Below, piece after piece: positions 1 through 22,176 of a DNA stretch of 32,000 nt. The translations under genes were made by a program, and so were the position numbers. Numbering within the stretch: position 1 is the first letter of the stretch; each line of letters starts with the position of its first letter. The DNA comes from Dubosiella newyorkensis (GTDB lineage: Bacteria > Bacillota_I > Bacilli_A > Erysipelotrichales > Erysipelotrichaceae), in assembly GCF_001945605.1 (NCBI RefSeq), contig NZ_MPKA01000064.1:1-32000 (forward strand). The letters run 5' to 3'. The notes under the pieces are model-generated. The model was not told where the DNA came from. It was given only the letters and a program-made list of their open reading frames with translations, and made no database searches.

Positions 1-431
1 CTGTCGGGATCTTTTGGATTGAATTGTCTTTTCAGAAGATTGTGAAGTTTTCGATCATTCCCTTTAGATATGGTCGTTTTTATCTTGTGTTTCAGATATT
101 TCGGTTTGATATTGGCTTCTTTCATGATCGAATAGACATACTTCTGGCATCCTTGGATCCCATGCTTGTGCAGGATCTCTGCGATCTTGGGCGAGCCATA
201 CAGCTGGTGCGAATCGTTGTAGATCTTGACGATTGCTTTTTTTGTTTTTTCCCGTCGGACTTTTGTCTTGGATGGTTTTGATCTTAAATACTTGTAGTAG
301 CCGGAAGGGCTCTTCTCCAATATAGCCAGTATACCCGCTATCGATGCTTTGGGATGTTTCTCTTTGTATTCCTGGACCGATCGATAGAGGAGACGAGCCG
401 TTACTTGCCGAGTATACTGATTGCTTTTTTT
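1..431 (-). CDS. IS3-family transposase OrfB, N-terminal part only, entered by a -1 frameshift from orfA
   Basis: The minus-strand frame offset by -1 from orfA is open from the A7 run (425-431) to position 1. It reads ...LLYRSVQEYKEKHPKASIAGILAILEKSPSGYYKYLRSKPSKTKVRREKTKKAIVKIYNDSHQLYGSPKIAEILHKHGIQGCQKYVYSIMKEANIKPKY...NLLKRQFNPKDPD, a typical IS3 OrfB N-terminus preceding the DDE core. Confidence 0.75.
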
Positions 432-688
432 AATACATTGAGTGCGTCCTGGGTATCTCTGAGCTGCTTTTTAAGATGGGCGATCTCTTTGGCTTCATCG
501 CTGGCATAGTTGCCGGATCCTCTTACGACGACCTGATCGTCATGCTCTTTATAGCTTTTTACCCATCCTCCAATTGTTGTGTCATGGACTCCGAACTGTT
601 GCGCGATCTGGGTGTAGGCAAGGTCTGGATGATCGAGTACATACTGAATCACCTGTTCCTTAAATTCTTTGTCATATTGCTTTGCCAT
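401..688 (-). CDS. IS3-family transposase OrfA (HTH DNA-binding subunit)
   Basis: The 95-aa product reads MAKQYDKEFKEQVIQYVLDH...YTQIAQQFGVHDTTIGGWVK, followed by a leucine-zipper-like C-terminus, which is typical of IS150/IS3 OrfA. An RBS (GAGGAGGAATGAAAA) lies upstream. The gene ends just after the slippery run TTA-AAA-AAA-G. Confidence 0.85.
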   Translation of the reverse strand: MAKQYDKEFKEQVIQYVLDHPDLAYTQIAQQFGVHDTTIGGWVKSYKEHDDQVVVRGSGNYASDEAKEIAHLKKQLRDTQDALNVLKKAISILGK

Positions 689-785: not shown

Positions 786-1295
786 ATCCACATCTGGGGT
801 GATTGCCCTGCATGTCCTGTCAGCCATATTGCAATCTATGACCATGATAATGGCCAGAATGCGGTTTATTTCCTTGGTCAGAATCAGGGACCTGTTCCAG
901 GACGTGTTTCCATTGACCGCATTCCTGTTAATGGAATCATTGGTGTGTTCAGACCGAAACATATCAAAGGTGAAGGTGATGCAAAACCTAAAGCTGCACC
1001 GAAGCCCAAGAATGGTGCTGTACTGAATTCCATTCCAAGTGATTTCCATAGGGAGAACGCAACCTTTACGGTAACTGCCAACAAGATCCATATCCGTCAG
1101 GCTCCTTCCGTATCCGGTAAAGATACGGGTCTGTTTTATGAAAAAGGACAGAGTGTCAACTATGACGGCTATGTTGTCAGGGAGGGATTCACCTGGATCA
1201 GCTGGATCTCTGCTTCCACCCACACCCGCCGCTGGATGGCTTGTGGTGAAAACCAAGGCGGAAGAACAACCGTTCCTTACGGAACCTTCCGCTAG
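786..1295 (+). pseudogene. 5'-truncated peptidoglycan hydrolase/endolysin: the tail of a CHAP-like domain, an Ala/Lys/Pro linker and an SH3b (SH3_5) wall-binding domain
   Basis: The frame is open from 786 and reads IHIWGDCPACPVSHIAIYDHDNGQNAVYFLGQNQG..., consistent with the His-containing end of a CHAP domain. The linker is GEGDAKPKAAPKPK. The SH3b-like C-terminus reads ATFTVTANKIHIRQAPSVSGKDTG...GFTWISWISASTHTRRWMACGE. There is no N-terminal catalytic Cys region and no start/RBS, and the frame abuts the IS3 end. Confidence 0.65.
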
Positions 1296-1307
1296 CTAAA
1301 CGAAAAT

Positions 1308-1360
1308 GCCCATCGGGTAGACTGGCTTTGAAAGCTGGTTTGCCAGATGGGCTGTTTTTT
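1308..1360 (+). terminator. Rho-independent terminator, partly bidirectional, between the lysin remnant and the VOC gene
   Basis: GCCCATC (1308-1314) pairs with GATGGGC (1346-1352) and is followed by TGTTTTTT. The loop is long and could fold further. Confidence 0.5.
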
Positions 1361-1402
1361 CGTAAAAAACAAATTGTATAAATATAACTCTTATGAAGGA
1401 AT

Positions 1403-1843
1403 TTAAAATTCGTCCTTATCAAAGGAAGTTTGATAAGGATTATTTTCCCAAGCACTTATCTCAATTAAGTTATTTTCAAGATCCGTAATTACGCATGTCC
1501 GTTGTCCCCAGAATTCAGTTGTTGGTGGGTAAACAGCATTTGCCCCTTTAGCAACAACTTCTTCATAAGCCTTATCAACTTCTTTAAAACTATTTACAGA
1601 TAAAGATATTTCGAAATGGCCATTAATACCGCAACAGTAATTATATTCATGACATGTTAAAAACTCGAAGCTTTCTCTTTTATAGAGCATAAAAAGAGTG
1701 TGATCTTTTACTAAATAAACAAATCCTGTGTCTTCGCCCTCAGTAATCTCAAAACCTAGGACATCCCTATAGAAGCGAACCATTTTTGGCATATTTTCTA
1801 CCATTAATTGGATTCCATCTAATCTCATCTCTATTAAACTCAT
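1403..1843 (-). CDS. VOC (glyoxalase/bleomycin-resistance/dioxygenase) superfamily protein
   Basis: The 146-aa product has an N-terminus typical of VOC-fold proteins (LDGIQLMVENMPKMVRFYRDVLGFEI) and the tail FWGQRTCVITDLENNLIEI. It is the first gene of the low-GC island. Confidence 0.7.
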   Translation of the reverse strand: MSLIEMRLDGIQLMVENMPKMVRFYRDVLGFEITEGEDTGFVYLVKDHTLFMLYKRESFEFLTCHEYNYCCGINGHFEISLSVNSFKEVDKAYEEVVAKGANAVYPPTTEFWGQRTCVITDLENNLIEISAWENNPYQTSFDKDEF

Positions 1844-1864
1844 CGATTATGATTAAACTGCATC

Positions 1865-2065
1865 TTATTCCTGGTACGAAAGGCAGCCTTGTCTTTCTCC
1901 GGGATAATAGTAGGACCCATAATGGCTAAAATACTGTCGTCCATTACTATCTTTATCATATGGATTCCAGTAAATGCAGCCATCACTACAGTTATGCCCA
2001 CATAATGGCATAATGGGGATAGAAATTCTGACTTCTTTTCTATCCTCGTTTTTAATTTTTTTCAT
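1865..2065 (-). CDS. small Cys/Tyr-rich hypothetical protein (66 aa from the RBS-supported start)
   Basis: The internal ATG at 2065 is preceded by GAAGGAGAAAATT, whereas the track start at 2086 has no RBS. The product reads MKKIKNEDRK...PLCGHNCSDGCIYWNPYDKDSNGRQYFSHYGSYYYPGERQGC. I do not recognise the family. Confidence 0.45.
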   Translation of the reverse strand: MKKIKNEDRKEVRISIPIMPLCGHNCSDGCIYWNPYDKDSNGRQYFSHYGSYYYPGERQGCLSYQE

Positions 2066-2143
2066 AATTTTCTCCTTCGATTTCATATTTCAATTCAACT
2101 ATCTTTTCGAACGATATAATTTATAAAAATAGATATTTTAAGT

Positions 2144-2347
2144 TTACTGTTCTATCAATTGATTTAACGGAAGATAAGCATAATATCCGTCCTCGGTTTT
2201 TAATAAAACTAAATCTGTATTTTCTTTATCCCAGAACCATAAAAATGAAGTCGGTATTGAACCTCGATCAGGTTTAGTTCCAAAGCAACCGTTCTTATAC
2301 CCTACAAACTTGGTTCCTGCTGGAAAATCTGCAATTTTTGAAGGCAT
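2144..2347 (-). CDS. hypothetical ORF, probably the C-terminal part of a longer frame that continues in-frame from the upstream membrane ORF across a single TAA
   Basis: The ATG at 2347 has no RBS. The same frame is open from 2473 down to 2144 and is in phase with ORF 2474..2974. See the finding covering 2144-2974. Confidence 0.35.
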   Translation of the reverse strand: MPSKIADFPAGTKFVGYKNGCFGTKPDRGSIPTSFLWFWDKENTDLVLLKTEDGYYAYLPLNQLIEQ

Positions 2348-2473
2348 ATAATAACATTTAAGAGTTGTTCCGTGGAAAATAGACGTTTCTTTAATTTCAT
2401 TTGCTAAATATCCTGGAATCTCTGATGTTGAAACATATTCTTTTTGATTATCAACAATAAATGATTCTGAAAT

Positions 2474-2974
2474 TTATTGCTGAAAACTCTGCGTTAAAAC
2501 AGTTTTTGTAATAGAGAAACCAAGCAAAAGCACAACAGGTAACAATATTAAAATTAGTAGGTTCCATTTCTTTAGGGAGCTTTTTGCTAAATATACCAAC
2601 CCAATCATCGCAGCAGTAATAATAACCATGGACAGGCATAAAATTGACCAAATCTTTAGTGATCGCAAAGCGAGTCCTGCTTGCGTTATTGAATAAACAG
2701 AAACGGCGGCCACCAAAGTGACTAGAACGCTTACGATTACTTTCACAATAGAACTGATGCCATTTGTATCAATCATCCAAGTTTGATATAAAAATGTTAT
2801 TAAACAAGCTATACTTCCAAAAATCCATAAACATAACCACAAAAAAAATGCGAAATTTTGAAAATCCTCAATAAAACCTATGAGTAATATTAGCGGAATT
2901 CCGATTATGATTAAGAGAGGGGCTTCAAATATTACGAATAAATGTGTTTCTCTGTTATTCATATTTTCTTTCAA
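2474..2974 (-). CDS. polytopic membrane protein (about 5 TM segments), translationally coupled to idi
   Basis: The 166-aa product consists almost entirely of hydrophobic helices. Its start overlaps the idi stop as ATGA (2971-2974). Confidence 0.6.
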   Translation of the reverse strand: MKENMNNRETHLFVIFEAPLLIIIGIPLILLIGFIEDFQNFAFFLWLCLWIFGSIACLITFLYQTWMIDTNGISSIVKVIVSVLVTLVAAVSVYSITQAGLALRSLKIWSILCLSMVIITAAMIGLVYLAKSSLKKWNLLILILLPVVLLLGFSITKTVLTQSFQQ

Positions 2975-3561
2975 TCCATCAATAAATTTGGCGATTGAGT
3001 ATTAAACATTGATTGCTCAACGCATGAAAAGACTTTTTCAAACCAAGCAGTAAATTGCTTTGGATGTTCCTCAATAGTTTGAACTAAAACTTTAAATTCA
3101 ATCCATTCGACCTCAGATACTTCAGCCGGGTTGGGAATCACTTCTAAATTAGTACTATCTACAGGAAGTACAAAAACATAGTCGATTTCATTTTCAGATA
3201 AGTTTCTAAAATCGTGTTGATACCGGATTGTTCCTACTTGCTTGATATGATTAGTAATAAATACACTTGTTTCCAACCAACTCTTATCAAGAAATCTTAT
3301 GCCTAATTCTTCTCTTAACCTTTTAATAATTGTATCGATTAGATTTGTATTTGGATCGGGGTGAGAGCAGCAAGAATTTGACCATAATCCACCTGAATGA
3401 TATTTACTGATTTGGCGTTTTTGGAGAAGAACTGTTTGTTTCTCAGAATCAACGATAAAAACTGAGAACGCTCGATGCAATTGATTATTTTTATGGGCTT
3501 GAATCTTTTCTTCACTCCCAATGATTTCATCATTTTCGTTAACAAGAATAACTTGATCCAT
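2971..3561 (-). CDS. idi: isopentenyl-diphosphate delta-isomerase, type 1 (Nudix-fold)
   Basis: The type-1 IDI active-site pattern is present: metal His residues in AHKNNQLHRAFSVF, WSNSCCSHP (catalytic Cys plus His, compare E. coli WTNSVCGHP), REELGI, and SENEIDYVFV (compare ENEVCPVF, catalytic Glu). Length is 196 aa. Confidence 0.85.
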   Translation of the reverse strand: MDQVILVNENDEIIGSEEKIQAHKNNQLHRAFSVFIVDSEKQTVLLQKRQISKYHSGGLWSNSCCSHPDPNTNLIDTIIKRLREELGIRFLDKSWLETSVFITNHIKQVGTIRYQHDFRNLSENEIDYVFVLPVDSTNLEVIPNPAEVSEVEWIEFKVLVQTIEEHPKQFTAWFEKVFSCVEQSMFNTQSPNLLMD

Positions 3562-3565
3562 ATAA

Positions 3566-4138
3566 TTACCCGAGAAAGTCCGATAAATCTTTTATGAAGC
3601 CTACGTTTAGTCCTTTAACTTGTTGCGACATATTATAGACGTTAGTTGCAAGATATCTTGCAAACGTATACTCTTCTATTTCACAGCATAAATTAATCCA
3701 GTTTCTAAACCAAAATTCAAAATTTTTGGGATCCCTAAACCTCTTAAAGAAACTCGGTTTACAGTCTTTAAAATAATCTTCCCATATCTCTAAATCTGTT
3801 CCGAGTATAGCTAATGCAGCATAATATAAGTCTCCTTTAGGAAATTTATACTGGATATTCCCATACACTTCCTTGAAATGTTGGTCTAGTTTTGACTGGT
3901 ATTCAGTTAATCCATTACGAATAAGTTCTAAAGCTACAGCTAGCTCAATAATTGAGCAAACAAATTCTTTTTGCACTCTGTTAAAAATCTCTTCCTCCGT
4001 TTCAGACGGTGTTGACTGTCCGGTTACCATATTTGCCATAACAAGAATATGCCTTTTCATCCGAATACGATCTAACCGACTATATTTCTCTATCATTTGC
4101 TCATTGTTCATTAGTGTTTCAGTAATTCTCCTTTCCAA
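3566..4138 (-). CDS. hypothetical protein with helix-like composition, no recognisable motif; start uncertain (TTG at 4138 or ATG at 4111)
   Basis: The 190-aa ORF is tightly packed between the prenyltransferase-like gene and idi. No DDxxD, P-loop or metal motif was seen. Confidence 0.5.
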   Translation of the reverse strand: MERRITETLMNNEQMIEKYSRLDRIRMKRHILVMANMVTGQSTPSETEEEIFNRVQKEFVCSIIELAVALELIRNGLTEYQSKLDQHFKEVYGNIQYKFPKGDLYYAALAILGTDLEIWEDYFKDCKPSFFKRFRDPKNFEFWFRNWINLCCEIEEYTFARYLATNVYNMSQQVKGLNVGFIKDLSDFLG

Positions 4139-4145
4139 TTACCAT

Positions 4146-5030
4146 TTACGAAATAATATAATATTTATTTATAGTAATATCTTTAAAATCATTATCTAGC
4201 GAAATCCCTATTGCAAATCCATAAAGAATAAGATCCCTATGTTCGTTTTCGAAAACAGCTAATTGCAACAGTTGCTTTTTAAGGCTGGGAAATATATTTT
4301 CCAATTCTTGGGTAAGAAAGCCATTATCCAGAACCTTAAAATATAATTTATATTTTATATTAGTTGAATAATCTATAGCATGAAGCCACAATTGAATTTT
4401 ATTTCTCTCTATTAGAACTTTTAGCGTATCCTTAATACAACAGAAGTCACTACCTATAAGGTTTATCGAAGCAAGTGTTGACTCTATAGTTAATTCATCT
4501 AGCAATTCGTACTTAGCTGGATCGAAATCATCCATTCCTCTACGTAACAACCATTCAAAGTTTAAGATATTTCCATTTTTTCCATTTTTTAAACCTATCA
4601 TGTGCAAAGAGCCATAATGATTTCGAGAAGGATTTAAGGAGAAAGCAGAAGAGATTTCTTTTAATTCATTAGCCATCTCTACATCGAGTGAGAAGTTGGC
4701 GTTTAGTAGCGAAAACAGTTTATTTATATTAGCGTTTGTTCGGTTTTGCAGAGCAAAGTAAATTCGTTGAGCTTGATTAGAATCAACACAGATACAAATA
4801 CAACGAATCATCTTAAATTCTTGTAAAAAAGAATAGAGAAGATATTGCTCTGGGGTAAGGGTTGCTTTATTTATAATATCTTGGAAATTTGAGGGGTCGT
4901 CTAATGGTTTCAGATATGTTTTCACTATAAATGGACAATCTTGCTTTATATTTATCCCAATAAAATCAATTGTTTCTGAGTAATCGACTGATTTAAACGG
5001 ATCAAATAGTGGTACTCTTCTAAATGACAT
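4146..5030 (-). CDS. candidate ABBA-fold (aromatic/peptide) prenyltransferase-like protein
   Basis: The 294-aa product shows ten short alternating-hydrophobic strand-like segments in five pairs separated by helical stretches. The pairs are FIGINIK/FIVKTYLKP, IRCICICVD/RIYFALQ, LHMIGLK/ILNFEWLL, LWLHAIDY/KYKLYFKV and LILYGFAIGISL/ITINKYYI. Size and layout fit a PT barrel, and a dedicated idi lies in the same operon. The start is coupled as GGAGGGATTAAATG to the kinase stop. No HMM or structure check was run. Confidence 0.5.
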   Translation of the reverse strand: MSFRRVPLFDPFKSVDYSETIDFIGINIKQDCPFIVKTYLKPLDDPSNFQDIINKATLTPEQYLLYSFLQEFKMIRCICICVDSNQAQRIYFALQNRTNANINKLFSLLNANFSLDVEMANELKEISSAFSLNPSRNHYGSLHMIGLKNGKNGNILNFEWLLRRGMDDFDPAKYELLDELTIESTLASINLIGSDFCCIKDTLKVLIERNKIQLWLHAIDYSTNIKYKLYFKVLDNGFLTQELENIFPSLKKQLLQLAVFENEHRDLILYGFAIGISLDNDFKDITINKYYIIS

Positions 5031-6059
5031 TTAATCCCTCCAAGCAAAAAATGAATCTACTTGCGTATACCCTTTCGCCAGAAAATCGATCATTAATGAT
5101 TTATCGGAAATATGCAAACCTTCTCTTATCAATCCTGCTATAAATCTCGATAGATAAATCCCGTTTAAACATTTTGATAAGATATTTATGTTTTCTTTTT
5201 CTAAAGTATTTAAACGATAATATTTTGAATATGATGAAATATAGGCGTTCCTGTATTGTTCCGCCATTTCAACAGAGCGTACTTCTCCAATGAAATCCTG
5301 CTGGTATCGTGAGCTATACCAGGTTATAAGAAAGTCAAGTAAGCACGGACATCTACCAGATAAATTAAAGTCTATAATTCTAAATGTACCCATAGAGTCC
5401 ATAAGAACATTACTTGTCAATCCTAAATCTCCATGGACGGCAGAGCAAGGAAGTTTATGAATCACTTCTATTATCGTTTTAATTGACTTTTTATGGACTT
5501 TTCTTAGAGGTTGCCATACTTCATTCGAAGTGTTAATCCCAGACCAGATTTGATCAAATTCAGTTTTTCCGTTATATAAAGCTCTCAGTGCGAAATTCAA
5601 GGGTAGTTTTCTATGAAAAGATTTTCCAAAAGAATGTGACAACCCAATCAATCTTCCAATAGCAGTAATATTTATCAAATTTATACTTTTTATGTCTCTT
5701 CCAACGTATTCTTGTAAAGAGACAAAAGCCCTAGCATTCTCATATAGATGATGTAAATCTGTCTCATAGCAGTATTTACCATCAGAATTAATTAATGGAA
5801 AAAATCTTGCTGTCGGGACTCCCTTACTACGAAGATATTCAGAAAACTCGATTTGGTCTTCATTTTGTTGGCGAGAAAAAGTATGATCACTAATCAATTT
5901 CATAACGAAATGCTCATTATCGATTGTTTCGATGAAATAAACGAATGAAAATTTAGGCGGCTCCCAAAAATCATCTATTACTGAGATTCTTGTGATAATC
6001 TTAATATCAAAATATTCGCTGAATATCTTAGCAACAGGAATTGTCTCTATCACAGACAT
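5031..6059 (-). CDS. APH/choline-kinase-fold phosphotransferase (protein-kinase-like superfamily)
   Basis: The Brenner motif HGDLGLTSNVLMD is followed by FRIIDFNLSG, the metal-binding D of the DFG-equivalent. Length is 342 aa. The 5' end overlaps the rSAM gene by 32 nt. Confidence 0.7.
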   Translation of the reverse strand: MSVIETIPVAKIFSEYFDIKIITRISVIDDFWEPPKFSFVYFIETIDNEHFVMKLISDHTFSRQQNEDQIEFSEYLRSKGVPTARFFPLINSDGKYCYETDLHHLYENARAFVSLQEYVGRDIKSINLINITAIGRLIGLSHSFGKSFHRKLPLNFALRALYNGKTEFDQIWSGINTSNEVWQPLRKVHKKSIKTIIEVIHKLPCSAVHGDLGLTSNVLMDSMGTFRIIDFNLSGRCPCLLDFLITWYSSRYQQDFIGEVRSVEMAEQYRNAYISSYSKYYRLNTLEKENINILSKCLNGIYLSRFIAGLIREGLHISDKSLMIDFLAKGYTQVDSFFAWRD

Positions 6060-7203
6060 GACTGCAAATACCTTTTAAAGGGGAGTCGGTACTCTCGATA
6101 GTCCCAGCGATTTCCTCAATTGCTTTTAGAACAAGTCGATCGTTTTCAGAAAAGACTTTTTTTAATTTAAGCCTATTGAATTGTATTTTTGCCGATGCCA
6201 AAATACATTCCCTATATGATAAGCACAGACCTAGATTAACCAAATGTGTACATCCAGATGTAGCTAGGTTCGCAGTATAACAATTAGGGCATAGGAAAAA
6301 AAATCTGCATCCTACACAAGGATTATTAGACGTCAAATCTAATTTGGAACAATCATAATTCTGAAATTTACTTGACTCATCACCAAGTGAAACTGGGGCG
6401 AATCCCTGACAGGGAAATATATTTCCTTCAGTATCAAAGCATTTTGTTAATTCCCCTGCAGCACAAAACCGATGTTTATTTTTTAAATGCGCAAACCAAA
6501 GACGAAGGTCAAAATTAAGTAAAGTGCAAAGATCTAAACTCGGATTATCAGTATAAAATTTGACAAGCTTTTCGAGTTCCCCGTTTAAAATTTCTCCAAC
6601 CTCTTCAAAGTTCCATTCAATACCAGTTGGAAGAGTAGCATCTGCAACGAATCCTAATTTATGTAAATGGATTACTCCTTCCGCCAAATGTGGAAGAGTG
6701 GCTTTTGAAAGGGTTAATTTAGCCTGACATTTTCCCGGCCATGTCCTTAAAAAGAAGTCCTTATCAATATGTCTGTAGCTTCCATCTCCGGACAATAGCG
6801 GTCTATTTAAGTTATGCATAGCCTCCGTACCATCGAGGCTGAGAGAAACAATATATTTCTCTTTTCTTTCTTGAAGCCATTCCTGAACTGGTCCGTGGAC
6901 TAATGTTCCATTGGTGGTAGTTTCAAAATAGGTATTCCGATCCCCGTAAACATCTTCGATGTAGGAATCGATTTTTTTTAGGAGAGCAAAGTTTGCGAAG
7001 GGCTCTCCACCAAAAACTTCGATCAGTGCTGTCTCGCCAGGAGGTATCTCCCCATAAAAACTGTCAATAATTTCTTTCGCGGTCTCCCAACTCATCTTTT
7101 TTTTATTCTTAAAGTGCTCGTAACAGTAGAGGCAGTTTAGGTTACACTCTTCGGTTAATAAGAGCATGATTTTTTTTTGATCTTTATCCATAATCTTTTC
7201 CAT
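6028..7203 (-). CDS. radical SAM enzyme with a C-terminal SPASM domain (anSME-like peptide-modifying maturase)
   Basis: The CNLNCLYC (CxxxCxxC) motif starts at residue 20, followed by GGEPF. The SPASM region reads FCAAGELTKCFDTEGNIFPC ... CVGCRFFFLCPNCY, and there is an extra Cys-rich tail GICSHVCDRDNSCC. There is no space for an N-terminal RRE/PqqD-like domain. Confidence 0.85.
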   Translation of the reverse strand: MEKIMDKDQKKIMLLLTEECNLNCLYCYEHFKNKKKMSWETAKEIIDSFYGEIPPGETALIEVFGGEPFANFALLKKIDSYIEDVYGDRNTYFETTTNGTLVHGPVQEWLQERKEKYIVSLSLDGTEAMHNLNRPLLSGDGSYRHIDKDFFLRTWPGKCQAKLTLSKATLPHLAEGVIHLHKLGFVADATLPTGIEWNFEEVGEILNGELEKLVKFYTDNPSLDLCTLLNFDLRLWFAHLKNKHRFCAAGELTKCFDTEGNIFPCQGFAPVSLGDESSKFQNYDCSKLDLTSNNPCVGCRFFFLCPNCYTANLATSGCTHLVNLGLCLSYRECILASAKIQFNRLKLKKVFSENDRLVLKAIEEIAGTIESTDSPLKGICSHVCDRDNSCC

Positions 7204-7215
7204 TCTAATAACATA

Positions 7216-7243
7216 AAGTGAAGAGAAATGTTTCTCCTCACTT
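7216..7243 (-). promoter_or_regulatory. intercistronic stem-loop between the precursor ORF and the rSAM gene (attenuator or mRNA-stabilising hairpin)
   Basis: The minus-strand RNA AAGUGAGGAGAAA-CA-UUUCUCUUCACUU forms a stem of about 11-13 bp with one G-U pair, followed by UAUGUUAUU. It lies 9 nt after the peptide stop and 12 nt before the rSAM ATG. Confidence 0.55.
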
Positions 7244-7252
7244 ATTTAGTAA

Positions 7253-7411
7253 TTAATCCCATCCACAGGATTTCTTATGAGCTGTGCAACTGCAGCTATA
7301 AGCAGTAAAACCTGGGTCATACGAATATTCAGTTTTATTCTGCGTTTTTTCTGCTTTCTGAATCATTGATTCAAGAGTTGCATAGTCTTCACTTGAAAAA
7401 TGAAAACTCAT
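7253..7411 (-). CDS. 52-aa candidate RiPP precursor peptide, absent from the supplied ORF track because it is under 60 aa
   Basis: An ATG at 7411 is preceded by AAAGGAGAAGAACAGT, and the stop TAA is at 7253-7255. My translation is MSFHFSSEDYATLESMIQKAEKTQNKTEYSYDPGFTAYSCSCTAHKKSCGWD. It lies immediately upstream of, and co-oriented with, the rSAM/SPASM gene. Confidence 0.7.
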   Translation of the reverse strand: MSFHFSSEDYATLESMIQKAEKTQNKTEYSYDPGFTAYSCSCTAHKKSCGWD

Positions 7412-7605
7412 ACTGTTCTTCTCCTTTCTTGTTTTCTAAGTTTGCAAAAGCAATTAAGCAAAAGTCATTCTATGCTTAACTACTTTGAAGCCCACAAACT
7501 ATTCACTTGCTAAGTAACATTCATGAGCTTTATTCAAAGGAAGAATTTAAATAATCCTCCCTATTGAACGACAACACTATTACCATTTACGGCAGATTTA
7601 TTTAG

Positions 7606-7815
7606 CTATCGAACCAAGCGTATGATTGCGGTCATTAACCACTTAAGGATAATTAGGCAAGTAGCTACATAACCTACTGCAAATCCAATCGCCGATCGAG
7701 CGATAAGTTTTCCGGTTCCCGGACCTTCGAGAGCGGGAATTCTACCCACCATAAACTTATTGCCTACGTAAAAGGCAATAGCAGAATAGACGAGTATTAC
7801 CAAAAGTCCTTCCAT
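7606..7815 (-). CDS. small two-TM membrane protein, hypothetical
   Basis: The 69-aa product has two hydrophobic helices. An RBS (GGAGAAAGAGAA) lies directly upstream of the ATG. Confidence 0.5.
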   Translation of the reverse strand: MEGLLVILVYSAIAFYVGNKFMVGRIPALEGPGTGKLIARSAIGFAVGYVATCLIILKWLMTAIIRLVR

Positions 7816-7862
7816 GATTCTCTTTCTCCTATCCTCTATATCCTCTAGAAAAACGAATTTCG

Positions 7863-8246
7863 CTATTCGATTCCCGTTTGCTCAGTAAACTCTGAGTAGG
7901 GAATAGATTCCTCAGCATCAAATAATTTGTTCGCGAACTCAAATTGCTTTGAAGGGCTGTCAATCAAATCTTCTTCAACATAAAGAAATTCATCGCCCGT
8001 TTTCGTATACACAATCGTTGAATTTCCTAGTCTGCCGTAGTTCACTACGATATTGCTCGGTTGCATAGAAGTATGCATAATTTTTGAAAAAGCAAAGTAA
8101 TCCTCAATGTTATCGACTGGTTTTTCTACAACTAAGTAATCTGTTTCATTTTTGCTGCTTGTTATTGAAACCTCGTCGGTAGTTGAGCAACCGAGAATGC
8201 TCAGGCTCATGCCTATCAGTAGGAGGAGCCGAAGTGTCCTTTTCAT
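7863..8246 (-). CDS. lipoprotein, hypothetical
   Basis: The signal peptide carries a lipobox: MKRTLRLLLLIGMSLSILGC-STT. Confidence 0.65.
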   Translation of the reverse strand: MKRTLRLLLLIGMSLSILGCSTTDEVSITSSKNETDYLVVEKPVDNIEDYFAFSKIMHTSMQPSNIVVNYGRLGNSTIVYTKTGDEFLYVEEDLIDSPSKQFEFANKLFDAEESIPYSEFTEQTGIE

Positions 8247-8261
8247 TTTTTGCTCCTTCTA

Positions 8262-8591
8262 TCACTTGACTAAGTTTCCAAGCTCTTGAATTTTTTTAAT
8301 CAAGCTTTTTTTAGGTATTGAAGCAGTGAAACCAGAGAGTTGCATTTCGCCTGCACCAACATTTCCTATTCCTACCTGCACCCAGCCGTAAATATTGAGT
8401 GCATGATCAACTTGATCAAACGTAAGAAACTGCATGGCAGTTAGCGCACCTGTTCCTTTTTTATAAACGGGGTTCTTATCAAGGGGACTCTCAATTTGTT
8501 TAAATCCATTACTAAGACAAAAATTATTGATGATTTGTGCGATGGTTTCTGGGTCTTTACTGGTAGTGTATGAGAACTTACTTCTAGACAT
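8262..8591 (-). CDS. hypothetical soluble protein (109 aa)
   Basis: The start overlaps the stop of the upstream membrane gene (ATGTCTAG), which indicates translational coupling. I do not recognise the family. Confidence 0.5.
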   Translation of the reverse strand: MSRSKFSYTTSKDPETIAQIINNFCLSNGFKQIESPLDKNPVYKKGTGALTAMQFLTFDQVDHALNIYGWVQVGIGNVGAGEMQLSGFTASIPKKSLIKKIQELGNLVK

Positions 8592-9012
8592 TACTTGCTC
8601 CTTTGGTCATTTTTAGCCCCACTAAGCCTAATATTGCAGTAATAACATCAATATAAATTCCATTTTCAAAGCCTTCGCAGACCCTTAGGAACAGATACTG
8701 TATGTCTGAATCTACATTCCCTCTCATCATAGGTGGAACAATTGCGATGATTAGGAGTTCAACTATTAAACCCACACCAATTCCTGAAAGCTTCCCTGGT
8801 CTATTTCCTTGAGAAATAGCAAAGAGTATATATAGGGCTTGAGCAACAACTATTAAGCCGACGACTGCAAACCAAATCGCATCTCCTGACGACATACCGT
8901 GCCAACCATCTAGGTTTCCTGACACTGAACCAAAATTCATCAGCAGGGAGGCGAGTATAGAACCAGTTAAACCAAGATAACCAATTAAAGCCAATATGTT
9001 TACTTTTTTCAT
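8584..9012 (-). CDS. four-TM membrane protein, hypothetical (start moved to the RBS-supported ATG)
   Basis: The ATG at 9012 is preceded by GGAAGGGAGAAAA and the product begins MKKVNILALIGYLGLTG. The longer track ORF extending to 9093 adds a basic, non-membrane extension without better support. Confidence 0.55.
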   Translation of the reverse strand: MKKVNILALIGYLGLTGSILASLLMNFGSVSGNLDGWHGMSSGDAIWFAVVGLIVVAQALYILFAISQGNRPGKLSGIGVGLIVELLIIAIVPPMMRGNVDSDIQYLFLRVCEGFENGIYIDVITAILGLVGLKMTKGASNV

Positions 9013-9189
9013 TTTTCTCCCTTCCTTTAGAATCCCCGACCATTCCCTCCTTTCTTTAGGTCTTTTTTTGTAGACTATTTTGAACATTACCAATGAACTT
9101 ATTTAAAGTTTGAAATAAACACAATTAAGGGATTAAAACCCGAATTATCAACTTTTTATTGACAAATTGCTGGACTAGTAAGATAATGA

Positions 9190-9244
9190 AAAGCAAAATA
9201 AAAGATTCCCGAAAAGTCTACTTTAAGGGAATCCTTCTTTTTTT
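9190..9244 (-). terminator. bidirectional stem-loop terminator at the 3' end of the recombinase gene
   Basis: GATTCCC (9204-9210) pairs with GGGAATC (9227-9233). T-runs follow on both strands: TTCTTTTTTT on the plus strand and TTTTATTTTGCTTT on the minus strand. Confidence 0.5.
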
Positions 9245-9817
9245 ATACTTATAATAGGTGTTTTTGCTAATGCTAAAGTGTCGGCAAAGATCTTTAACAG
9301 TGACCTCGTGGGATTCACATTTTTTAACCCACTCGTCAAATTCTTGAGGTAGTTCGAGCTCTGGTCTGCCAAATTTTACTCCACGTGCTTTTGCGGCAGC
9401 TATCCCCTCAGCTTGCCGTTTTTTTATTGCTTCTCTTTCCGTCTGGGCAACAAAAGAAAGAATCTGAAGGACAAGGTCAGCAATGAATGTGCCCATCAGA
9501 TTCTTTTCGGTTCTTGTATCGAGTAACGGCATATCAACCACTACCATATCCACGCCATTTTCTTTAGTCAGGACCCGCCATTCCTTTTGGATCTCCTCAT
9601 AGTTCCTGCCAAGCCTATCAATGCTATAGACATAAACCACATCACCTGGCTTCAACTTTTTGATAAGTGCTTGATAGTTTGGGCGATTAAAGTCCTTTCC
9701 TGATTGTTTATCAATAAACAGATGGTCAGACTCAATCCCGAGTTCGCTCAGAGCATTAACTTGTCTTGCTTCGTTTTGATCCATGCTACTAACACGGATA
9801 TAGCCATAAATTGCCAT
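9218..9817 (-). CDS. small serine recombinase (resolvase/invertase family) with a C-terminal HTH
   Basis: MAIYGYIRVSSMDQNEARQ contains the catalytic Ser motif, followed by SIDRLGRN and a C-terminal HTH (VTVKDLCRHFSISKNTYYKY). The start at 9817 has the strong RBS AGAGGAGGAATTT. The upstream 44 codons in the track ORF are unsupported. Confidence 0.85.
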   Translation of the reverse strand: MAIYGYIRVSSMDQNEARQVNALSELGIESDHLFIDKQSGKDFNRPNYQALIKKLKPGDVVYVYSIDRLGRNYEEIQKEWRVLTKENGVDMVVVDMPLLDTRTEKNLMGTFIADLVLQILSFVAQTEREAIKKRQAEGIAAAKARGVKFGRPELELPQEFDEWVKKCESHEVTVKDLCRHFSISKNTYYKYKKRRIPLK

Positions 9818-9992
9818 AAATTCCTCCTCTTTGGTTGTGATTGGTTTTAACTCATTCATCACAACTATTCGAGTAAGAATTCTGCTTTCTGTTAGATAGG
9901 AATCTGAGTGGATTTTCCTAAGAATAAGATCCTTCCAGAAAAGGGTCATGGCCGTATAATAGTCTGACAGATCTTTTGTTTTGGCTTGTTAG

Positions 9993-10307
9993 TCAAATAG
10001 CCATTTTTGCTGCTTTGTTCTGATTGTCCAGAAGTACTAATTTAGTGATTTCATCAGTATTTATAACAGGTTTCAGATATCCGCCCATAATCAAGTCAAT
10101 CACTGGTAGCGGGTTTTCATAATCACCAACCCAGTCCCCGTAGCTAATCTGCCAAAAACCATCTTTACTGTAGCTCATCATCAGTTCGTCATTGAAGTCG
10201 ACAACGACTTCGCCCTCTCTCAGGGTCGGATAGACCTCATCTGGTTCAGTGAGGATCTTTTCTGGGTTCCAGCGCTTTACGCCTTCCAGGATTGTATTTA
10301 GTTCCAT
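9993..10307 (-). CDS. hypothetical small acidic protein (104 aa from ATG 10307)
   Basis: The ORF has an AAAGGAC RBS-like sequence upstream. Its composition is reminiscent of small immunity-type proteins, but I recognise no motif. Confidence 0.45.
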   Translation of the reverse strand: MELNTILEGVKRWNPEKILTEPDEVYPTLREGEVVVDFNDELMMSYSKDGFWQISYGDWVGDYENPLPVIDLIMGGYLKPVINTDEITKLVLLDNQNKAAKMAI

Positions 10308-10383
10308 TGTTTGTCCTTTCTTAGGACCAGTCCGTATCTTGCTTAAGCAATTCAATCATACAGGAATTCAGAAGTTTTACAAG

Positions 10384-10640
10384 AGCAATAATCGACGAAT
10401 GTACTTTACCTAAAGCATATTTCAGTCATTTATTCTTCATAAAAAAGTCACAAATCATTCATCTTAAAGAGAAATACCGGAGAGAAGTGCAAGTCTAAAA
10501 CAGGATCATCTCTTATCCAGAAACCAAATTTCGGAATAGATTAGAAGCCGACCAAACTGGAAGGAAATCGTCCAGCATTGTGAGTTCCATGGAAGTTAGC
10601 ATCTCTCATAAAAATCCGTTTGATGCAAAAAATCTTACTG
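10384..10640 (+). pseudogene. possible decayed AraC-type HTH remnant (multiple stops and frame changes)
   Basis: Frame fragments resemble the two AraC C-terminal HTH signatures: LPKAYFSHLF.IKK (compare s.sYlsrlFKK) and, in another frame, EIVQHCEFHGS*HLS*KSV (compare eIA..vGF.d.sYFsr.FKk). This is a by-eye resemblance only. Confidence 0.25.
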
Positions 10641-10851
10641 GACATTTCCTTGATGCATTTCTACAGATGTTAACGCAAAATTTACAGTCTTGACGCAAAC
10701 TTCCGATTTTGTTGAGAGGGCATTTTCAGCCCTTAATACTGCTTGATTTACACTATTTTTTAGAGTTAGCAAATACCCGATACCTATCGCAGATTTAGCC
10801 TATTTTTTATGCGTTTATTGGTATCGGTTAGACGTCTCGGTTTTCAAAGCG

Positions 10852-18616: not shown

Positions 18617-19765
18617 CTATTTCTTTGGCAGTCTAGGCAGCCTAGAGGCCAAGGATGTCAGCGTTTCATTGTTGATGGTGTTCATCATTCTAGAAATACG
18701 GTCGATCGTCACTCGATTTCCTTCTTGTTCGCCAACGATCACCGCTTCATCGCCCTCTTGCACGCCTTCGATCTCTGTCACATCCGCCATGCATTGATCC
18801 ATACAAATGTTTCCGATCAATTTAGCCTTTTTCCCATGAAGCAGCACTTCTAGGCCTTGATTGGAGACAAGACGAGAAAGTCCATCCGCGTATCCGATCG
18901 AAAGTGTCGCGACCTTCGTTGGCTTTTGAGCGACAAAATGCCGTCCATAGCTCACGCTTTCTCCGGCTTTGATCCACTTCACCAAACTCACATTGGCTTT
19001 TAAAGTCAAGATCGGCTTCAGACCAAGATGATAGGCAGTGTCGATCGAATCATCGCTCGTCATACCGTTGAACAAAAGCCCAGGCCGGCAATAATCGAAA
19101 CCAAGATCCCCATAATTCAAGATCCCATAACTATTTTGAATGTGACGCAAACCAGGATCGATCCCTTCCTCTTTTAAATAAGAGATCGCTTCCTCAAACA
19201 ATTCGATTTGATGTTTCGTGAAGCGTCGAGCGTCTTGTCCAAGGTCATCGCTGACAGGAAAGTGGGAAAAGATCCCCTCCACTCTTAAATACGGCAATTC
19301 ATAGATCGTTTTGAGCGCTTCTATTTCTTTGTGCCCATCCTGAAAAGGAATCCCGATGCGATTCATTCCCGTATCCAATTTAAGATGCCCGCGAACGACA
19401 ACATCCTTCGCTTTGGCAAAGTCATTGAGCTTCTTGGCGTACTCTTCCGAAAGGAACGACTGCACAAGGTCGTATTCAACAAGTTTTGAAAAGTGTTCTG
19501 GCGGAGTATAGCCTAGAATCAAAATATTTTCTTGGATCCCGCCTTCTCTCAGCTCGATGGCCTCATCGACACTCGAAACCCCAAAATAATCGATCCCAAG
19601 ATCTCTTAATGTTTTTGCGATCGGCAAAGCGCCAAGACCATAGGCGTTGGCTTTGACGATCCCCATGACCTTGGTCTTGTTCATGAGCTTTTGGATCTCT
19701 TTCAAGTTGTGCTCGATCGTATCATAATCGATCTCGCACCAAGCGCGTGAATACGCTTCTAGCAT
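18617..19765 (-). CDS. alr: alanine racemase (PLP-dependent)
   Basis: The PLP-Lys motif GIVKANAYGLG is present. Length is 382 aa, and C-terminal blocks include SIGYADG and GNICMDQCM. Confidence 0.85.
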   Translation of the reverse strand: MLEAYSRAWCEIDYDTIEHNLKEIQKLMNKTKVMGIVKANAYGLGALPIAKTLRDLGIDYFGVSSVDEAIELREGGIQENILILGYTPPEHFSKLVEYDLVQSFLSEEYAKKLNDFAKAKDVVVRGHLKLDTGMNRIGIPFQDGHKEIEALKTIYELPYLRVEGIFSHFPVSDDLGQDARRFTKHQIELFEEAISYLKEEGIDPGLRHIQNSYGILNYGDLGFDYCRPGLLFNGMTSDDSIDTAYHLGLKPILTLKANVSLVKWIKAGESVSYGRHFVAQKPTKVATLSIGYADGLSRLVSNQGLEVLLHGKKAKLIGNICMDQCMADVTEIEGVQEGDEAVIVGEQEGNRVTIDRISRMMNTINNETLTSLASRLPRLPKK

Positions 19766-22176
19766 GCACTGACCTCTTTTTCCATCGCAAGATCGATCAA
19801 AAGATCGATCAATTCAGTAAAGGAGATCCCTGCAGCTTGCATCATACTTGGATAACGGGAAGTCGCTGTGAAGCCAGGAAGCGTATTGATCTCGTTAAGA
19901 ACGATCTCGTTTTCTTCGGTCACGAACATATCGACACGCGCCATCCCCGTGCATCCCATGATTCGGAACGCTTTTTTCGCCAATGCTTGCGCGTTGGCGA
20001 ATGTTTGTCCATCAATACGAGCTGGACAATAAATATTAGCGCCTTTCATCGCGTACTTGCCTTCAAAATCAAAGATGGCGCTTTGGATCTCGATCTCGTC
20101 GACACTACCGACCTGGATCTGATCATTTCCTAAAACGGCGCAGCCGATCTCGAAGCCATTGATCGCTTCTTCGATCAAGATCTTTCCTCTTCCATCCCAT
20201 TTGAACGCGTCTTTTTTCGCTTCTTCAAATTGGCTCTTTTCTTCGACAAAATGAACACCATAGCTGCTTCCCGCGTTGCATGGCTTGATGACCCACGGGA
20301 GCGGAAGCTGTTCTTGGATCTCTTCAAAGCTTGGCTGCTCTTCCCATGCCTTCAAACAAATATATCGGGCGCAAGGAATGTGCGCTTGATCGCATAAAAT
20401 ATGCATAATCTCTTTATCCATGCACATCGCCGAGGCGAGAATATCGCTTCCTACATAATGAATATTCATCATTTGCGCCAATCCTTGGAAGGCGCCATCT
20501 TCTCCATTTTTTCCATGGAGCACCGGGAATATCACATCGAGAGGAATAAAAATCTCATTGTCCTTGTCATAGACGCCTTTATGCATCCAAGAACAAGAAT
20601 GAATATACTCTTCTTTTTTCCACGTATCGCTTTCGATTGCTTCGATCGGACCCGTATAAATAAAGAATTGTCCGCCTTCATCGATTCCAATGCACGTTAT
20701 ATCGTATTTTGAGCGGTCGATCTGGTGTAGAAAACTGCCTGTCGAATGCAGCGAAACCGAATACTCACTGCTTTGTCCTCCAAAAACGACCCCCAATTTC
20801 AATTTTGCCATACTTCCTCCTGCTGTTAATTGTTTTACGATCGTATCCATCGCCATTGCACGGCTTCCTTTGATCAAGATCACACAATCCTCTTGAAGCA
20901 AAGGAAGCAAAGCTTGTACGATTTCTTCTTTCGTTTGAAAAGATGCTCCATTCTCGCCAAACGCCTTCGCGCTTTCTACGCTCAATGGACCATATGTATA
21001 AAGCTGGTCGACACCATGCTCTTTAGCGTACTTGCCAATCGAAGCGTGGAGTTCTCTTTCTTCATTTCCTAGATCCAGCATATCACCTAAGATGGCGATA
21101 TGCTTTTGAGCCGGAAGGGCAAGGAGCGTATCGATCGCCGCCTTGGCGCTTTCCGGATTCGATTTATATGAATCGTCGAGAACGCGGGCATGTTGAAGCG
21201 TGAGCAGTTGTGTCCGCATCTTCGTCATTTCTAAGTTTTTAAGTCCTTGTAAGATCGTCGCATCCTCGATACCATCGTATTTGGCAGCAAGAATGACCGG
21301 CAATGCGTTCATCGCTTGATGGGCGCCCAAAGCATGCAGCTCGATCAAATCCTGGATGCCATTGGTTTTAAAGAAGATCGAATCTTTTCCATAATCGATC
21401 GAGGAAACGATCGAAAGCGTGCCTCCTTGGCCAAAGGATCGGATCGTTTTGCTCGGATCGAGTTTTTTCTCTTGCAGTACTTCTTCGATTTCCGGCGATT
21501 CTTTATTGTAGATCAATACGCCACCTTCCTTGAGTCCATCATAGATCTCCAGCTTCGCTTCGGCGATCTGCTTTTTTCCGCCTAGATTTTCCATATGGGC
21601 GGAACCGATCGTCGTAATGATCGCGATATCCGGGGGCGCGATCTTTGTCAAATAGGTGATCTCGCCTTTGTTTTCCATTCCCATTTCAAGGATCGCGACT
21701 TGCAGATCGGCATCAAAGTCTAAGATCGTCAAAGGAAGTCCGATCTCGTTGTTTCGATTACCTGGTGTCGCCGCGCTCTTCTTTACAAGAGAATAGACAC
21801 TTTTCACCATATCTTTACAGCTCGTCTTGCCATTGGACCCCGTGATCGCGATCACTTCGGCATCTAAAGAAGCTAAATACGCTTGCGCGAGCTGGCCTAG
21901 CGCTTCGATCGTATCTTCCACCAAGATCAAAGGGATCCCTTCTGGATAAGGGGTATGATCTTTTTGCCAAAAAGCAAGAGCGGCTTGTCCGTTTTTAACT
22001 TGTTCAATAAATGAATGCCCGTCATTGTGAGCGCCTACGATCGGAACGTATACATTGCCTTTTTGCACATTTCTCGAATCGATCGTTACGCCTTTTACGA
22101 TTGTGTCTGGATCGTATGGTCCGCAAACTTCACTTTGCATGTAGGTCGCGATTTCCGCGATGGTCTTTTGAATCAT
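19759..22176 (-). CDS. murF-ddl: bifunctional fusion: UDP-MurNAc-tripeptide--D-Ala-D-Ala ligase (MurF, residues 1 to about 450) joined to D-Ala--D-Ala ligase (Ddl, residues 456-805)
   Basis: The MurF part has the P-loop ITGSNGKTS and the C-terminal block IKGSRAMAMDTIVKQL. The linker is TAGGS. The Ddl part has MAKLKLGVVFGGQSSEYSVSLHS, the ATP-grasp blocks and LNEINTLPGFT. It is a single uninterrupted 805-codon frame. Confidence 0.8.
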   Translation of the reverse strand: MIQKTIAEIATYMQSEVCGPYDPDTIVKGVTIDSRNVQKGNVYVPIVGAHNDGHSFIEQVKNGQAALAFWQKDHTPYPEGIPLILVEDTIEALGQLAQAYLASLDAEVIAITGSNGKTSCKDMVKSVYSLVKKSAATPGNRNNEIGLPLTILDFDADLQVAILEMGMENKGEITYLTKIAPPDIAIITTIGSAHMENLGGKKQIAEAKLEIYDGLKEGGVLIYNKESPEIEEVLQEKKLDPSKTIRSFGQGGTLSIVSSIDYGKDSIFFKTNGIQDLIELHALGAHQAMNALPVILAAKYDGIEDATILQGLKNLEMTKMRTQLLTLQHARVLDDSYKSNPESAKAAIDTLLALPAQKHIAILGDMLDLGNEERELHASIGKYAKEHGVDQLYTYGPLSVESAKAFGENGASFQTKEEIVQALLPLLQEDCVILIKGSRAMAMDTIVKQLTAGGSMAKLKLGVVFGGQSSEYSVSLHSTGSFLHQIDRSKYDITCIGIDEGGQFFIYTGPIEAIESDTWKKEEYIHSCSWMHKGVYDKDNEIFIPLDVIFPVLHGKNGEDGAFQGLAQMMNIHYVGSDILASAMCMDKEIMHILCDQAHIPCARYICLKAWEEQPSFEEIQEQLPLPWVIKPCNAGSSYGVHFVEEKSQFEEAKKDAFKWDGRGKILIEEAINGFEIGCAVLGNDQIQVGSVDEIEIQSAIFDFEGKYAMKGANIYCPARIDGQTFANAQALAKKAFRIMGCTGMARVDMFVTEENEIVLNEINTLPGFTATSRYPSMMQAAGISFTELIDLLIDLAMEKEVSAC

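Follow-up and report, generated by a model that had tools for sequence, protein, structure and literature searches.

Barrel-type enzymes that prenylate peptides are known in the searched literature from cyanobacteria, where they serve cyanobactins and one lanthipeptide system. The cyanobactin F-family (PagF, LynF, TruF, KgpF, and LimF) and MppC are soluble enzymes of the alpha-beta-beta-alpha (ABBA) fold that prenylate side chains, Trp included, in peptides that are synthesized ribosomally and modified post-translationally (RiPPs), with PatA/PatG or LanM as partners. MppC, the cyanobacterial lanthipeptide enzyme, is leader-dependent and geranylates Trp after thioether ring formation (PMC12715784; review PMC13290415). 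In Firmicutes, the ComQ/ComX and PalQ/PalX systems use a Trp at or near the C-terminus of a ribosomal peptide as prenyl acceptor; PalQ is selective for C-terminal Trp, and isoprenyl diphosphate synthases are the relatives of ComQ and PalQ, whose folds are all-helical and whose chemistry is of the DDxxD kind (PMC10853753). Enzymes of the DMATS/Orf2/CloQ type (FgaPT2, DMATS1, CdpNPT, AtaPT, NphB, EpzP, AmbP1/AmbP3, and FamD1) share the ABBA barrel and act on small molecules. Here we analysed a 294-amino-acid (aa) protein of Dubosiella newyorkensis, a mouse-gut species of the Bacillota (Erysipelotrichaceae), encoded at 4146-5030 on the minus strand of a 32,000-nt window (positions 1 to 32,000 of contig NZ_MPKA01000064.1, assembly GCF_001945605.1; nucleotide coordinates below are those of the window unless a locus is named). 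A first-pass annotation of this DNA had suggested an ABBA prenyltransferase barrel, possibly acting on a peptide and akin to the cyanobactin F-family. We concluded that the protein belongs to a previously unannotated ABBA (PT-barrel) family that appears remotely related to DMATS-type enzymes, and that it sits in a RiPP operon whose precursor peptide it probably prenylates.

Predicted fold and sequence family of the 294-aa protein

The protein was modelled with AlphaFold2 on an alignment of 101 full-length family members without templates (predicted local distance difference test score, pLDDT, 86.2; predicted template-modelling score, pTM, 0.86). The model contains ten strands in five hairpins, given here by residue number:

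21-29 and 35-40: strands of hairpin 1
75-83 and 88-94: strands of hairpin 2
142-150 and 153-161: strands of hairpin 3
212-221 and 226-233: strands of hairpin 4
267-279 and 282-293: strands of hairpin 5

Two helices follow each of hairpins 1-4. The annotation had read five strand pairs alternating with helices and had placed the last pair at the extreme C-terminus, and the model reproduces both features: LILYGFAIGISL (residues 267-278) is strand 9, ITINKYYI (residues 285-292) is strand 10, and the chain stops one residue past strand 10. A Foldseek comparison of this model with the PDB gave 86 matches at E <= 1e-3. The best 50 of the 86 are all ABBA aromatic prenyltransferases at probability 1.00 (E 2.6e-7 to 3e-5), including AtaPT, AmbP1, EpzP, NphB/Orf2, AmbP3, FamD1, CdpNPT, AnaPT, NotF, DMATS1, 6-DMATS, and TleC, which bears out the barrel originally proposed; their TM-scores of 0.43-0.62 are moderate and lend support to membership of the ABBA superfamily, not of one particular family. 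An earlier model from six sequences was poor (pLDDT 60), with Foldseek matches that leaned to prenyltransferases at E ~0.1; it was not relied on, and the fold call rests on the 101-sequence model. The template-free model, the Foldseek matches, and the recurrent co-linear weak matches to Trp_DMAT described below support the call, and on this predicted structure we consider it very nearly certain that the 294-aa protein has the ABBA prenyltransferase fold.

Conservation was read from the same 101-member alignment. The conserved residues of the barrel are as follows:

D22, G25, N27, K37, Y39, R89, G146, R163, W215, D220, K226, K228, Y230, K232, G271, N288, Y290

Y39 is invariant over the 101 members, and at least 90% conservation was found for G25, N27, K37, D220, K226, K228, Y230, G271, A273, N288, and Y290. 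In the 19 closest members R89, G146, W215, and K232 are invariant too, and D22, R163, and K226 nearly so. Strands, which make up ~31% of the chain, hold 17 of the 18 most conserved residues; K37, Y39, R89, K226, K228, Y230, K232, N288, and Y290 are on strands and R163 is off strand. An i, i+2 spacing with hydrophobic residues in between is seen in K226-Y-K228-L-Y230-F-K232, K37-T-Y39, and N288-K-Y290. Judged against the model, this is what a polar, aromatic barrel lumen packed on outer helices should look like. The conserved strands resemble the diphosphate-binding strands of DMATS enzymes (Lys/Arg-x-Lys-x-Tyr and Gln-x-Tyr), and DMATS and Orf2-type enzymes carry basic and Tyr residues on the strands of their diphosphate sites. 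As had been noted in the first-pass annotation, the protein has no DDxxD motif: the one string that would formally pass as (N/D)DxxD, NDFKD at 280-284, is not conserved and belongs to the variable loop between strands 9 and 10, within a 3-residue insertion that relatives lack.

The DMATS/Orf2/CloQ-type enzymes are the structurally closest group, with the same predicted ten-strand barrel and likewise no conserved DDxxD. Fungal DMATS enzymes are far larger, whereas the 294-aa protein ends right after strand 10; membership of the DMATS family would call for a score above the family cutoff and a length of ~350-460 aa, and the protein, at 294 aa, gave no match to the family. A ComQ-like trans-prenyl synthase was rejected on fold, since a beta-barrel is predicted here, and the protein has no polyprenyl synthase match in Pfam. 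Given the all-helical fold of ComQ and PalQ, a shared reaction would be a case of convergence if the barrel protein works in the same way.

At the sequence level the protein alone has no match in Pfam, NCBIfam, or PDB chains, and an identical protein is recorded at NCBI as a "hypothetical protein" (WP_076341364.1 / OLU46459.1; MULTISPECIES Erysipelotrichaceae, Dubosiella newyorkensis). Only five relatives, at 31-36% identity, were returned by a word-indexed search, and the resulting six-sequence profile matched no PDB chain. An exhaustive search with a hidden Markov model (HMM) over 1.84 billion representatives, which are clusters from public genome and metagenome assemblies, gave 131 representative relatives at E <= 1e-3, 111 of them at E <= 1e-10. 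All members with readable surroundings are in Bacillota-like clusters. When each of the 101 full-length members was scanned against Pfam and NCBIfam, PF11991 (Trp_DMAT) was matched weakly by 18 (best E 8.9e-4) and TIGR03429 (DMATS family) by five, and any other family was matched by at most two; in the list of families matched most often, prenyltransferase models are confined to those of the DMATS type. The three Trp_DMAT matches that were inspected are co-linear, with protein residues ~123-248 lying on profile positions ~120-255, and all are under the curated cutoff (top score 18.6 bits vs. 25). Because the protein is an orphan by sequence, yet 18 of its 101 relatives weakly match Trp_DMAT, we concluded that it is a member of a previously unannotated ABBA family; these matches appear to form a faint sequence bridge to the DMATS type, from which the family is separate. 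The only PDB match of the 101-sequence profile, NIP7 (marginal, E 0.02), was rejected as chance, a search of the relative P0035 against the PDB gave nothing useful, and one locus search of GTDB genomes found no relative.

The RiPP operon and its recurrence in relatives

The barrel gene is part of an operon on the minus strand, listed here in 5' to 3' order:

7253-7411, minus strand: precursor peptide, 52 aa (ORF), MSFHFSSEDYATLESMIQKAEKTQNKTEYSYDPGFTAYSCSCTAHKKSCGWD
7216-7243, minus strand: terminator-like hairpin between the precursor and enzyme genes, from a consensus scan only
6028-7203, minus strand: radical S-adenosylmethionine (SAM)/SPASM peptide maturase, 391 aa, PapB-like (PF04055, PF13353)
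5031-6059, minus strand: APH-type kinase, 342 aa (PF01636 APH, 25.8 bits vs. cutoff 23.2)
4146-5030, minus strand: 294-aa barrel protein, intact open reading frame (ORF) from ATG to stop
3566-4138, minus strand: accessory protein, 190 aa by ORF and 181 aa by NCBI call, no family match
2971-3561, minus strand: type-1 isopentenyl-diphosphate isomerase (IDI), 196 aa (NF002995 and TIGR02150)
2474-2974, minus strand: membrane protein, 166 aa, weak 5TM-5TMR_LYT match (E 0.0016), start overlapping the IDI stop codon

The kinase stop codon TAA immediately abuts the ATG of the barrel gene, whose ribosome-binding site GGAGG lies 5 nt before the ATG within the 3' end of the kinase gene; the two genes are translationally coupled. 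The hairpin at 7216-7243 may act as an attenuator, fixing how much precursor is made relative to the enzymes. For the radical SAM enzyme, rSAM_PapB, a ranthipeptide maturase model, scores best in NCBIfam, and the enzyme is presumed to form thioether cross-links. In the kinase, the catalytic residues D211, N217, and D230-F-N are invariant in seven orthologues; the solved structures nearest to it are those of amicoumacin kinase, homoserine kinase II, and YihE, and the kinase is also present in Ileibacterium valens. The IDI, two genes downstream of the barrel gene, passes both NCBIfam equivalog cutoffs (NF002995, 136.5 vs. 127; TIGR02150, 112.6 vs. 105.8) and contains NSCCSHP and ENEIDYVF, which we take to be the catalytic Cys/His and Glu motifs of IDI-1. 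The 166-aa membrane protein possibly serves immunity or export. The gene for the 190-aa protein is limited to the Dubosiella and Ileibacterium versions of the cluster. It was considered as a missing lyase and set aside: no homology links it to the 183-aa protein that occupies this position in the L012 cluster, and for this reason it is taken as an accessory gene.

Three further genes lie downstream and are kept with the operon in all assemblies: one for a glyoxalase/bleomycin-resistance-fold protein (1403-1843, minus strand; PF00903, E 3e-16) and two small minus-strand ORFs at 1865-2086 and 2144-2347 (73 and 67 aa), the 73-aa one being Cys/Tyr-rich. All three could be immunity or accessory genes.

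Two other RiPP groups resemble parts of this operon. Ranthipeptides (PapB/freyrasin) are alike in the best match of the radical SAM enzyme and in their Cys-rich cores, and the window peptide has the end C-x-x-D; the score of the enzyme, however, is far under the equivalog cutoff (144 bits vs. 340), and no described ranthipeptide cluster with a prenyltransferase, kinase, or IDI was found in the literature. Lanthipeptides of classes III/IV (Hanks-type kinase) and V (APH-type kinase with a HopA1-like lyase) are alike in having a kinase beside a Ser/Cys-rich precursor, but their lyase or cyclase was not detected here, where an ABBA barrel and an IDI are present instead: the kinase has intact catalytic residues, and no operon protein has a lyase, LanC, or HopA1-like match in Pfam or NCBIfam. 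Cyanobactin and MppC systems differ in host (cyanobacteria vs. Bacillota) and in partners (PatA/PatG or LanM vs. a PapB-like radical SAM enzyme and a kinase). The link to the cyanobactin F-family made in the first-pass annotation, which had not considered the radical SAM and kinase partners, did not hold: membership was rejected because no F-family model was matched and the operon encodes no PatA/PatG-type protease or macrocyclase. LimF stood at rank 41 of the low-confidence (pLDDT 60) Foldseek search, and no cyanobactin enzyme is in the best 50 with the good model. The annotation's remark that such an enzyme would be unusual outside cyanobacteria and actinomycetes is supported, the host being a member of the Bacillota. 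Although not all journals were covered, no description of this barrel family, operon type, or core peptide was found in the literature.

We examined ten more genomic contexts around relatives, down to ~20% identity, with the following gene content:

L001 and L002 (P0006): precursor, radical SAM enzyme, APH kinase, barrel
L003 (P0004): precursor, radical SAM enzyme, APH kinase, barrel, then an IDI-like gene
L008-L010 (P0007): precursor, radical SAM enzyme, APH kinase, barrel
L027 (P0030): precursor, radical SAM enzyme, APH kinase, barrel
L012 (P0084): resolvase, precursor, radical SAM enzyme, kinase-barrel fusion, 183-aa protein, IDI
L011 (P0040) and L030 (P0070): IDI-like gene, U32 domain fused or adjacent to the barrel, PapB-like radical SAM enzyme, precursor, homologous kinase, more radical SAM enzymes
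L026 (P0120): barrel carrying a weakly matched PqqD-like (leader-binding) domain at its C-terminus, followed by a radical SAM enzyme and precursor
L029 (P0045): Hanks-type protein kinase (Pkinase, E 4e-37) in place of the APH kinase; DUF92 membrane protein after the barrel

Distant relatives again show the core set (precursor, radical SAM enzyme, kinase, and barrel), with the genes overlapping or abutting, and synteny with all three partners is maintained at ~20-30% identity. A radical SAM gene is next to the barrel gene in L001, L003, L008, L011, L012, L027, L029, and L030. The kinase adjoins the barrel in the window, L001, L003, L008, and L027, is nearby in L011 and L030 (the L011 copy is homologous to the window kinase, E 1e-18), and is fused to it in P0084; besides this fusion, there are barrels joined to a U32 domain and, on weak evidence, to one resembling PqqD. 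Of the ~10 independent contexts, five (the window, L003, L011, L012, and L030) contain IDI-like NUDIX genes, very distant relatives among them, and IDI models are the best match of these genes; the L012 gene passes the cutoffs and those of L003 and L011 are just under.

Some of these loci have features of their own. U32 proteins include oxygen-independent hydroxylases, and the U32-linked subfamily (L011, 3184-5031; L030, 2914-3891) lies among more radical SAM enzymes, including a B12-binding one, plus an FAD-dependent enzyme, which suggests a more elaborate version of the pathway. In L003, a 78-aa ORF right after the IDI-like gene (5139-5375) is rich in Gly, Tyr, Asp, and Arg, contains GYD..GYYR ~5 times, and ends in ...SVICY; it could represent another precursor or else a small protein with no connection to the pathway. 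L029, which lacks an IDI, carries the DUF92 membrane protein (kinase replacement and DUF92 gene at 4229-5017 and 1615-2616 of that locus); the DUF92/COG1836 family may count the plant phytyl-phosphate kinase VTE6 among its members, in which case the gene would be a second, independent isoprenoid link.

Every related locus has homologous or analogous small ORFs upstream of its radical SAM gene. The C-terminal part of the window precursor reads ...EYSYDPGFTAYSCSCTAHKKSCGWD; its core has three Cys and the end CGWD, so that Trp51 is second-to-last (...KSCGWD). Seven distinct precursor C-termini were collected: KSCGWD, QSCAWH, QSCVWH, SSGCTWG, SSHCTWG, SSSCMAWD, and RDGATW. Trp is last or second-to-last in all seven and is the sole invariant residue. 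A Cys 2-3 residues ahead of the Trp is nearly universal, and Ser residues flank the cysteines.

Proposed reaction and alternative explanations

The scheme that we infer for catalysis, donor, acceptor, order of steps, and kinase substrate is as follows. The barrel protein would act on the product of the upstream precursor gene (7253-7411). Residues predicted to line the barrel (K37/Y39, R89, R163, K226/K228/Y230/K232, and N288/Y290) would bind the diphosphate of dimethylallyl diphosphate (DMAPP), and its departure would give an allylic cation shielded by Tyr and Trp residues. A nucleophile of the peptide would then attack the cation, the likeliest being the indole of the second-to-last Trp51, possibly positioned by D220 or D22. 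A C5 donor is favoured because no chain-elongating synthase is present, and the type-1 IDI of the operon would raise the DMAPP supply. The PapB-like radical SAM enzyme would install thioethers from core cysteines, and the kinase would phosphorylate Ser or Thr of the peptide, the phosphate perhaps being a last modification, the mark of a pro-form, or a first step toward elimination. Ser/Thr of the peptide is the most likely kinase substrate, since the swap to a Hanks-type protein kinase in L029 points to a peptide rather than a prenol; a role as prenol or prenyl-phosphate kinase is unlikely for the same reason. By analogy, the closest functional counterparts of the proposed reaction would be the cyanobactin prenyltransferases and, foremost, MppC.

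A peptide substrate, as anticipated in the first-pass annotation, is supported by the RiPP context, the fusions, and the neighbouring isopentenyl-diphosphate (IPP) isomerase, and we regard prenylation of the precursor peptide by the barrel protein as a fairly probable function. Several results count against it. Searched by its own sequence, the 294-aa protein matches no prenyltransferase model or PDB chain significantly, and its moderate structural matches superpose with root-mean-square deviations of 5-9 Å. An hhalign comparison of the family profile with a single NphB sequence (identified by match as 1ZB6_A, 688 bits) was not significant (E 0.34); its top local pairing places the D-Y...K-Y-K-x-Y strand of the family on the M-D-Y-K-K...N173-L-Y175 strand of NphB. 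About half of the clusters lack an IDI, no export or leader-protease gene is evident in the island that carries the operon, and simple prenylation would leave the constantly associated kinase without a part to play. The kinase and barrel may act on one site, giving a prenyl phosphoester or a barrel-catalysed reaction of a phosphopeptide, chemistry that would be without precedent. The fuller proposal, a new RiPP class of anaerobic gut Bacillota that combines PapB-like cross-linking, phosphorylation by the kinase, and prenylation of the second-to-last Trp by a new ABBA family, is tentative, and we would give it somewhat less than an even chance.

The kinase also lies at the centre of an alternative in which no prenyl group is transferred. 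The barrel would have been repurposed so that its phosphate-binding lumen takes a phospho-Ser/Thr peptide and carries out beta-elimination, in the manner of a lanthipeptide phospholyase, or another phosphoester reaction. Such a reaction fits the kinase as the most constant partner of the barrel family, up to the fusion in P0084, the use of a Hanks-type Ser/Thr kinase in L029, the lack of a recognizable lyase or LanC cyclase, the precursor cores rich in Ser beside Cys, and the clusters without IDI. Hanks- and APH-type kinases both serve Ser/Thr activation in lanthipeptide classes III, IV, and V. The IPP isomerases in five of ~10 contexts would, however, be purposeless, and the conserved Y39, Y230, Y290, and W215 suit the shielding of a carbocation better than a lyase. 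No conserved His/Lys general base was seen beyond the basic residues common to prenyltransferases, and we know of no ABBA-fold lyase. We consider this alternative unlikely.

Just as improbable in our estimate is that the protein prenylates the peptide on a residue other than Trp, by S-prenylation of a CaaX-like Cys (CGWD, CAWH, CTWG), by O-prenylation of Ser, Thr, or Tyr, or on the phosphate added by the kinase. The Cys is exactly fourth from the end in five of the seven C-termini (CGWD, CAWH, CVWH, and CTWG twice), and cyanobactin-type ABBA enzymes prenylate Ser, Thr, Tyr, His, Arg, and Trp (PMC12715784). Against this, the Cys of the L029 precursor is fifth from the end (SCMAWD) and that of L026 ends DGATW with no nearby Cys, so that only the Trp is invariant; the PapB-like radical SAM enzyme would be expected to use the cysteines, and the remote homology points to indole prenyltransferases. 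We propose Trp51 as the prenyl acceptor, a choice that is favoured and not secure.

That the protein is a small-molecule aromatic prenyltransferase (for free Trp, a quinone, or a phenazine-like compound) merely beside a RiPP operon, or a non-catalytic scaffold or immunity protein, is very unlikely: every solved structural neighbour acts on small molecules, but the gene is translationally coupled within the operon, keeps its synteny with precursor, radical SAM enzyme, and kinase at ~20-30% identity, is fused to kinase, U32, and weakly PqqD domains, has no small-molecule pathway genes nearby (Pfam, NCBIfam), and encodes a predicted lumen that is polar and strongly conserved, which argues against a scaffold.

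In contrast to the DMATS/Orf2-type enzymes, the substrate of the barrel protein is thus likely to be a ribosomal peptide, with constant radical SAM and kinase partners and with anaerobic gut Bacillota as hosts. The ABBA fold itself is known; the ABBA family, the RiPP architecture, and the phylum appear to be new. If peptide prenylation holds true, gut Firmicutes would gain with this locus both an enzyme family and a class of peptides that are new, and the family would be the first of barrel-type peptide prenyltransferases to come from outside cyanobacteria, in convergence with the pheromone chemistry of ComQ/ComX. Such enzymes are prized as lipidation catalysts, and an independent family of ~131 representatives would enlarge both the enzyme toolbox and the known peptide chemistry of the microbiome. 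For genome mining, a handle is offered by two motifs, D-Y...K-Y-K-x-Y-x-K and N-x-Y, when combined with a precursor whose end is W-x. D. newyorkensis is a much-studied mouse commensal, and a prenylated peptide would be a candidate signalling or competition factor.

The island, a probable invertible switch, and other window features

The window is 99.6-99.97% identical to three NCBI assemblies, and its RecG shares 74-77% identity with RecG proteins from other Erysipelotrichaceae, Dubosiella muris among them. A low-GC island at ~791-10847 (31-37% GC vs. 42-48% in the flanks) carries the RiPP operon. Upstream of the operon are two features of a possible switch:

9070-9221: invertible segment, 152 bp, inverted relative to GCA_041448535.1 with flanks 99.97-100% identical
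9218-9949, minus strand: serine recombinase, resolvase/invertase family (called product of 199 aa, matching PF00239 Resolvase), adjoining the invertible segment

The segment is bounded by 10-bp inverted repeats, GTAGACTATT / AAAAGTCTAC, and contains a near-consensus promoter on the plus strand (TTGACA-17-GATAAT, 11/12, 9159-9187). In the window this promoter faces away from the minus-strand genes of the island; flipped, it would face toward them and, further on, the RiPP operon. A close homologue of the recombinase is found upstream of the L012 cluster. The 152-bp segment probably acts as a switch that makes the island phase-variable, with the neighbouring serine invertase as its driver. Should the operon be under its control, the peptide would in turn be a signal or weapon subject to phase variation. 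Between the switch and the precursor gene (7606-9093, minus strand) lie four small genes that travel with the island and would be the first driven by the switch; their products measure 169 aa (membrane protein), 109 aa, 127 aa (lipoprotein-like, with a signal Cys), and 69 aa (membrane protein).

In the metagenome contig L005, the right-hand neighbours of the island differ, and the island abuts a phage lysis cassette (GH25 endolysin, holin, and tail-fibre-like protein). In the window, the endolysin is cut down to its SH3_5 end (945-1295, plus strand), beside a fragment of an insertion sequence (IS) transposase (401-688, minus strand). From the differing neighbours and the lysis cassette of L005 we concluded that the island is mobile, and it may be prophage-borne; a search of IMG/VR found no relative.

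Elsewhere in the window, an 805-aa ORF (19759-22176, minus strand) fuses a Mur ligase (Mur_ligase, _M, and _C) to a D-Ala-D-Ala ligase and is followed by an alanine racemase gene (18617-19765) and an acyltransferase_3 gene. These genes form a cell-wall precursor module that is unrelated to the barrel finding.

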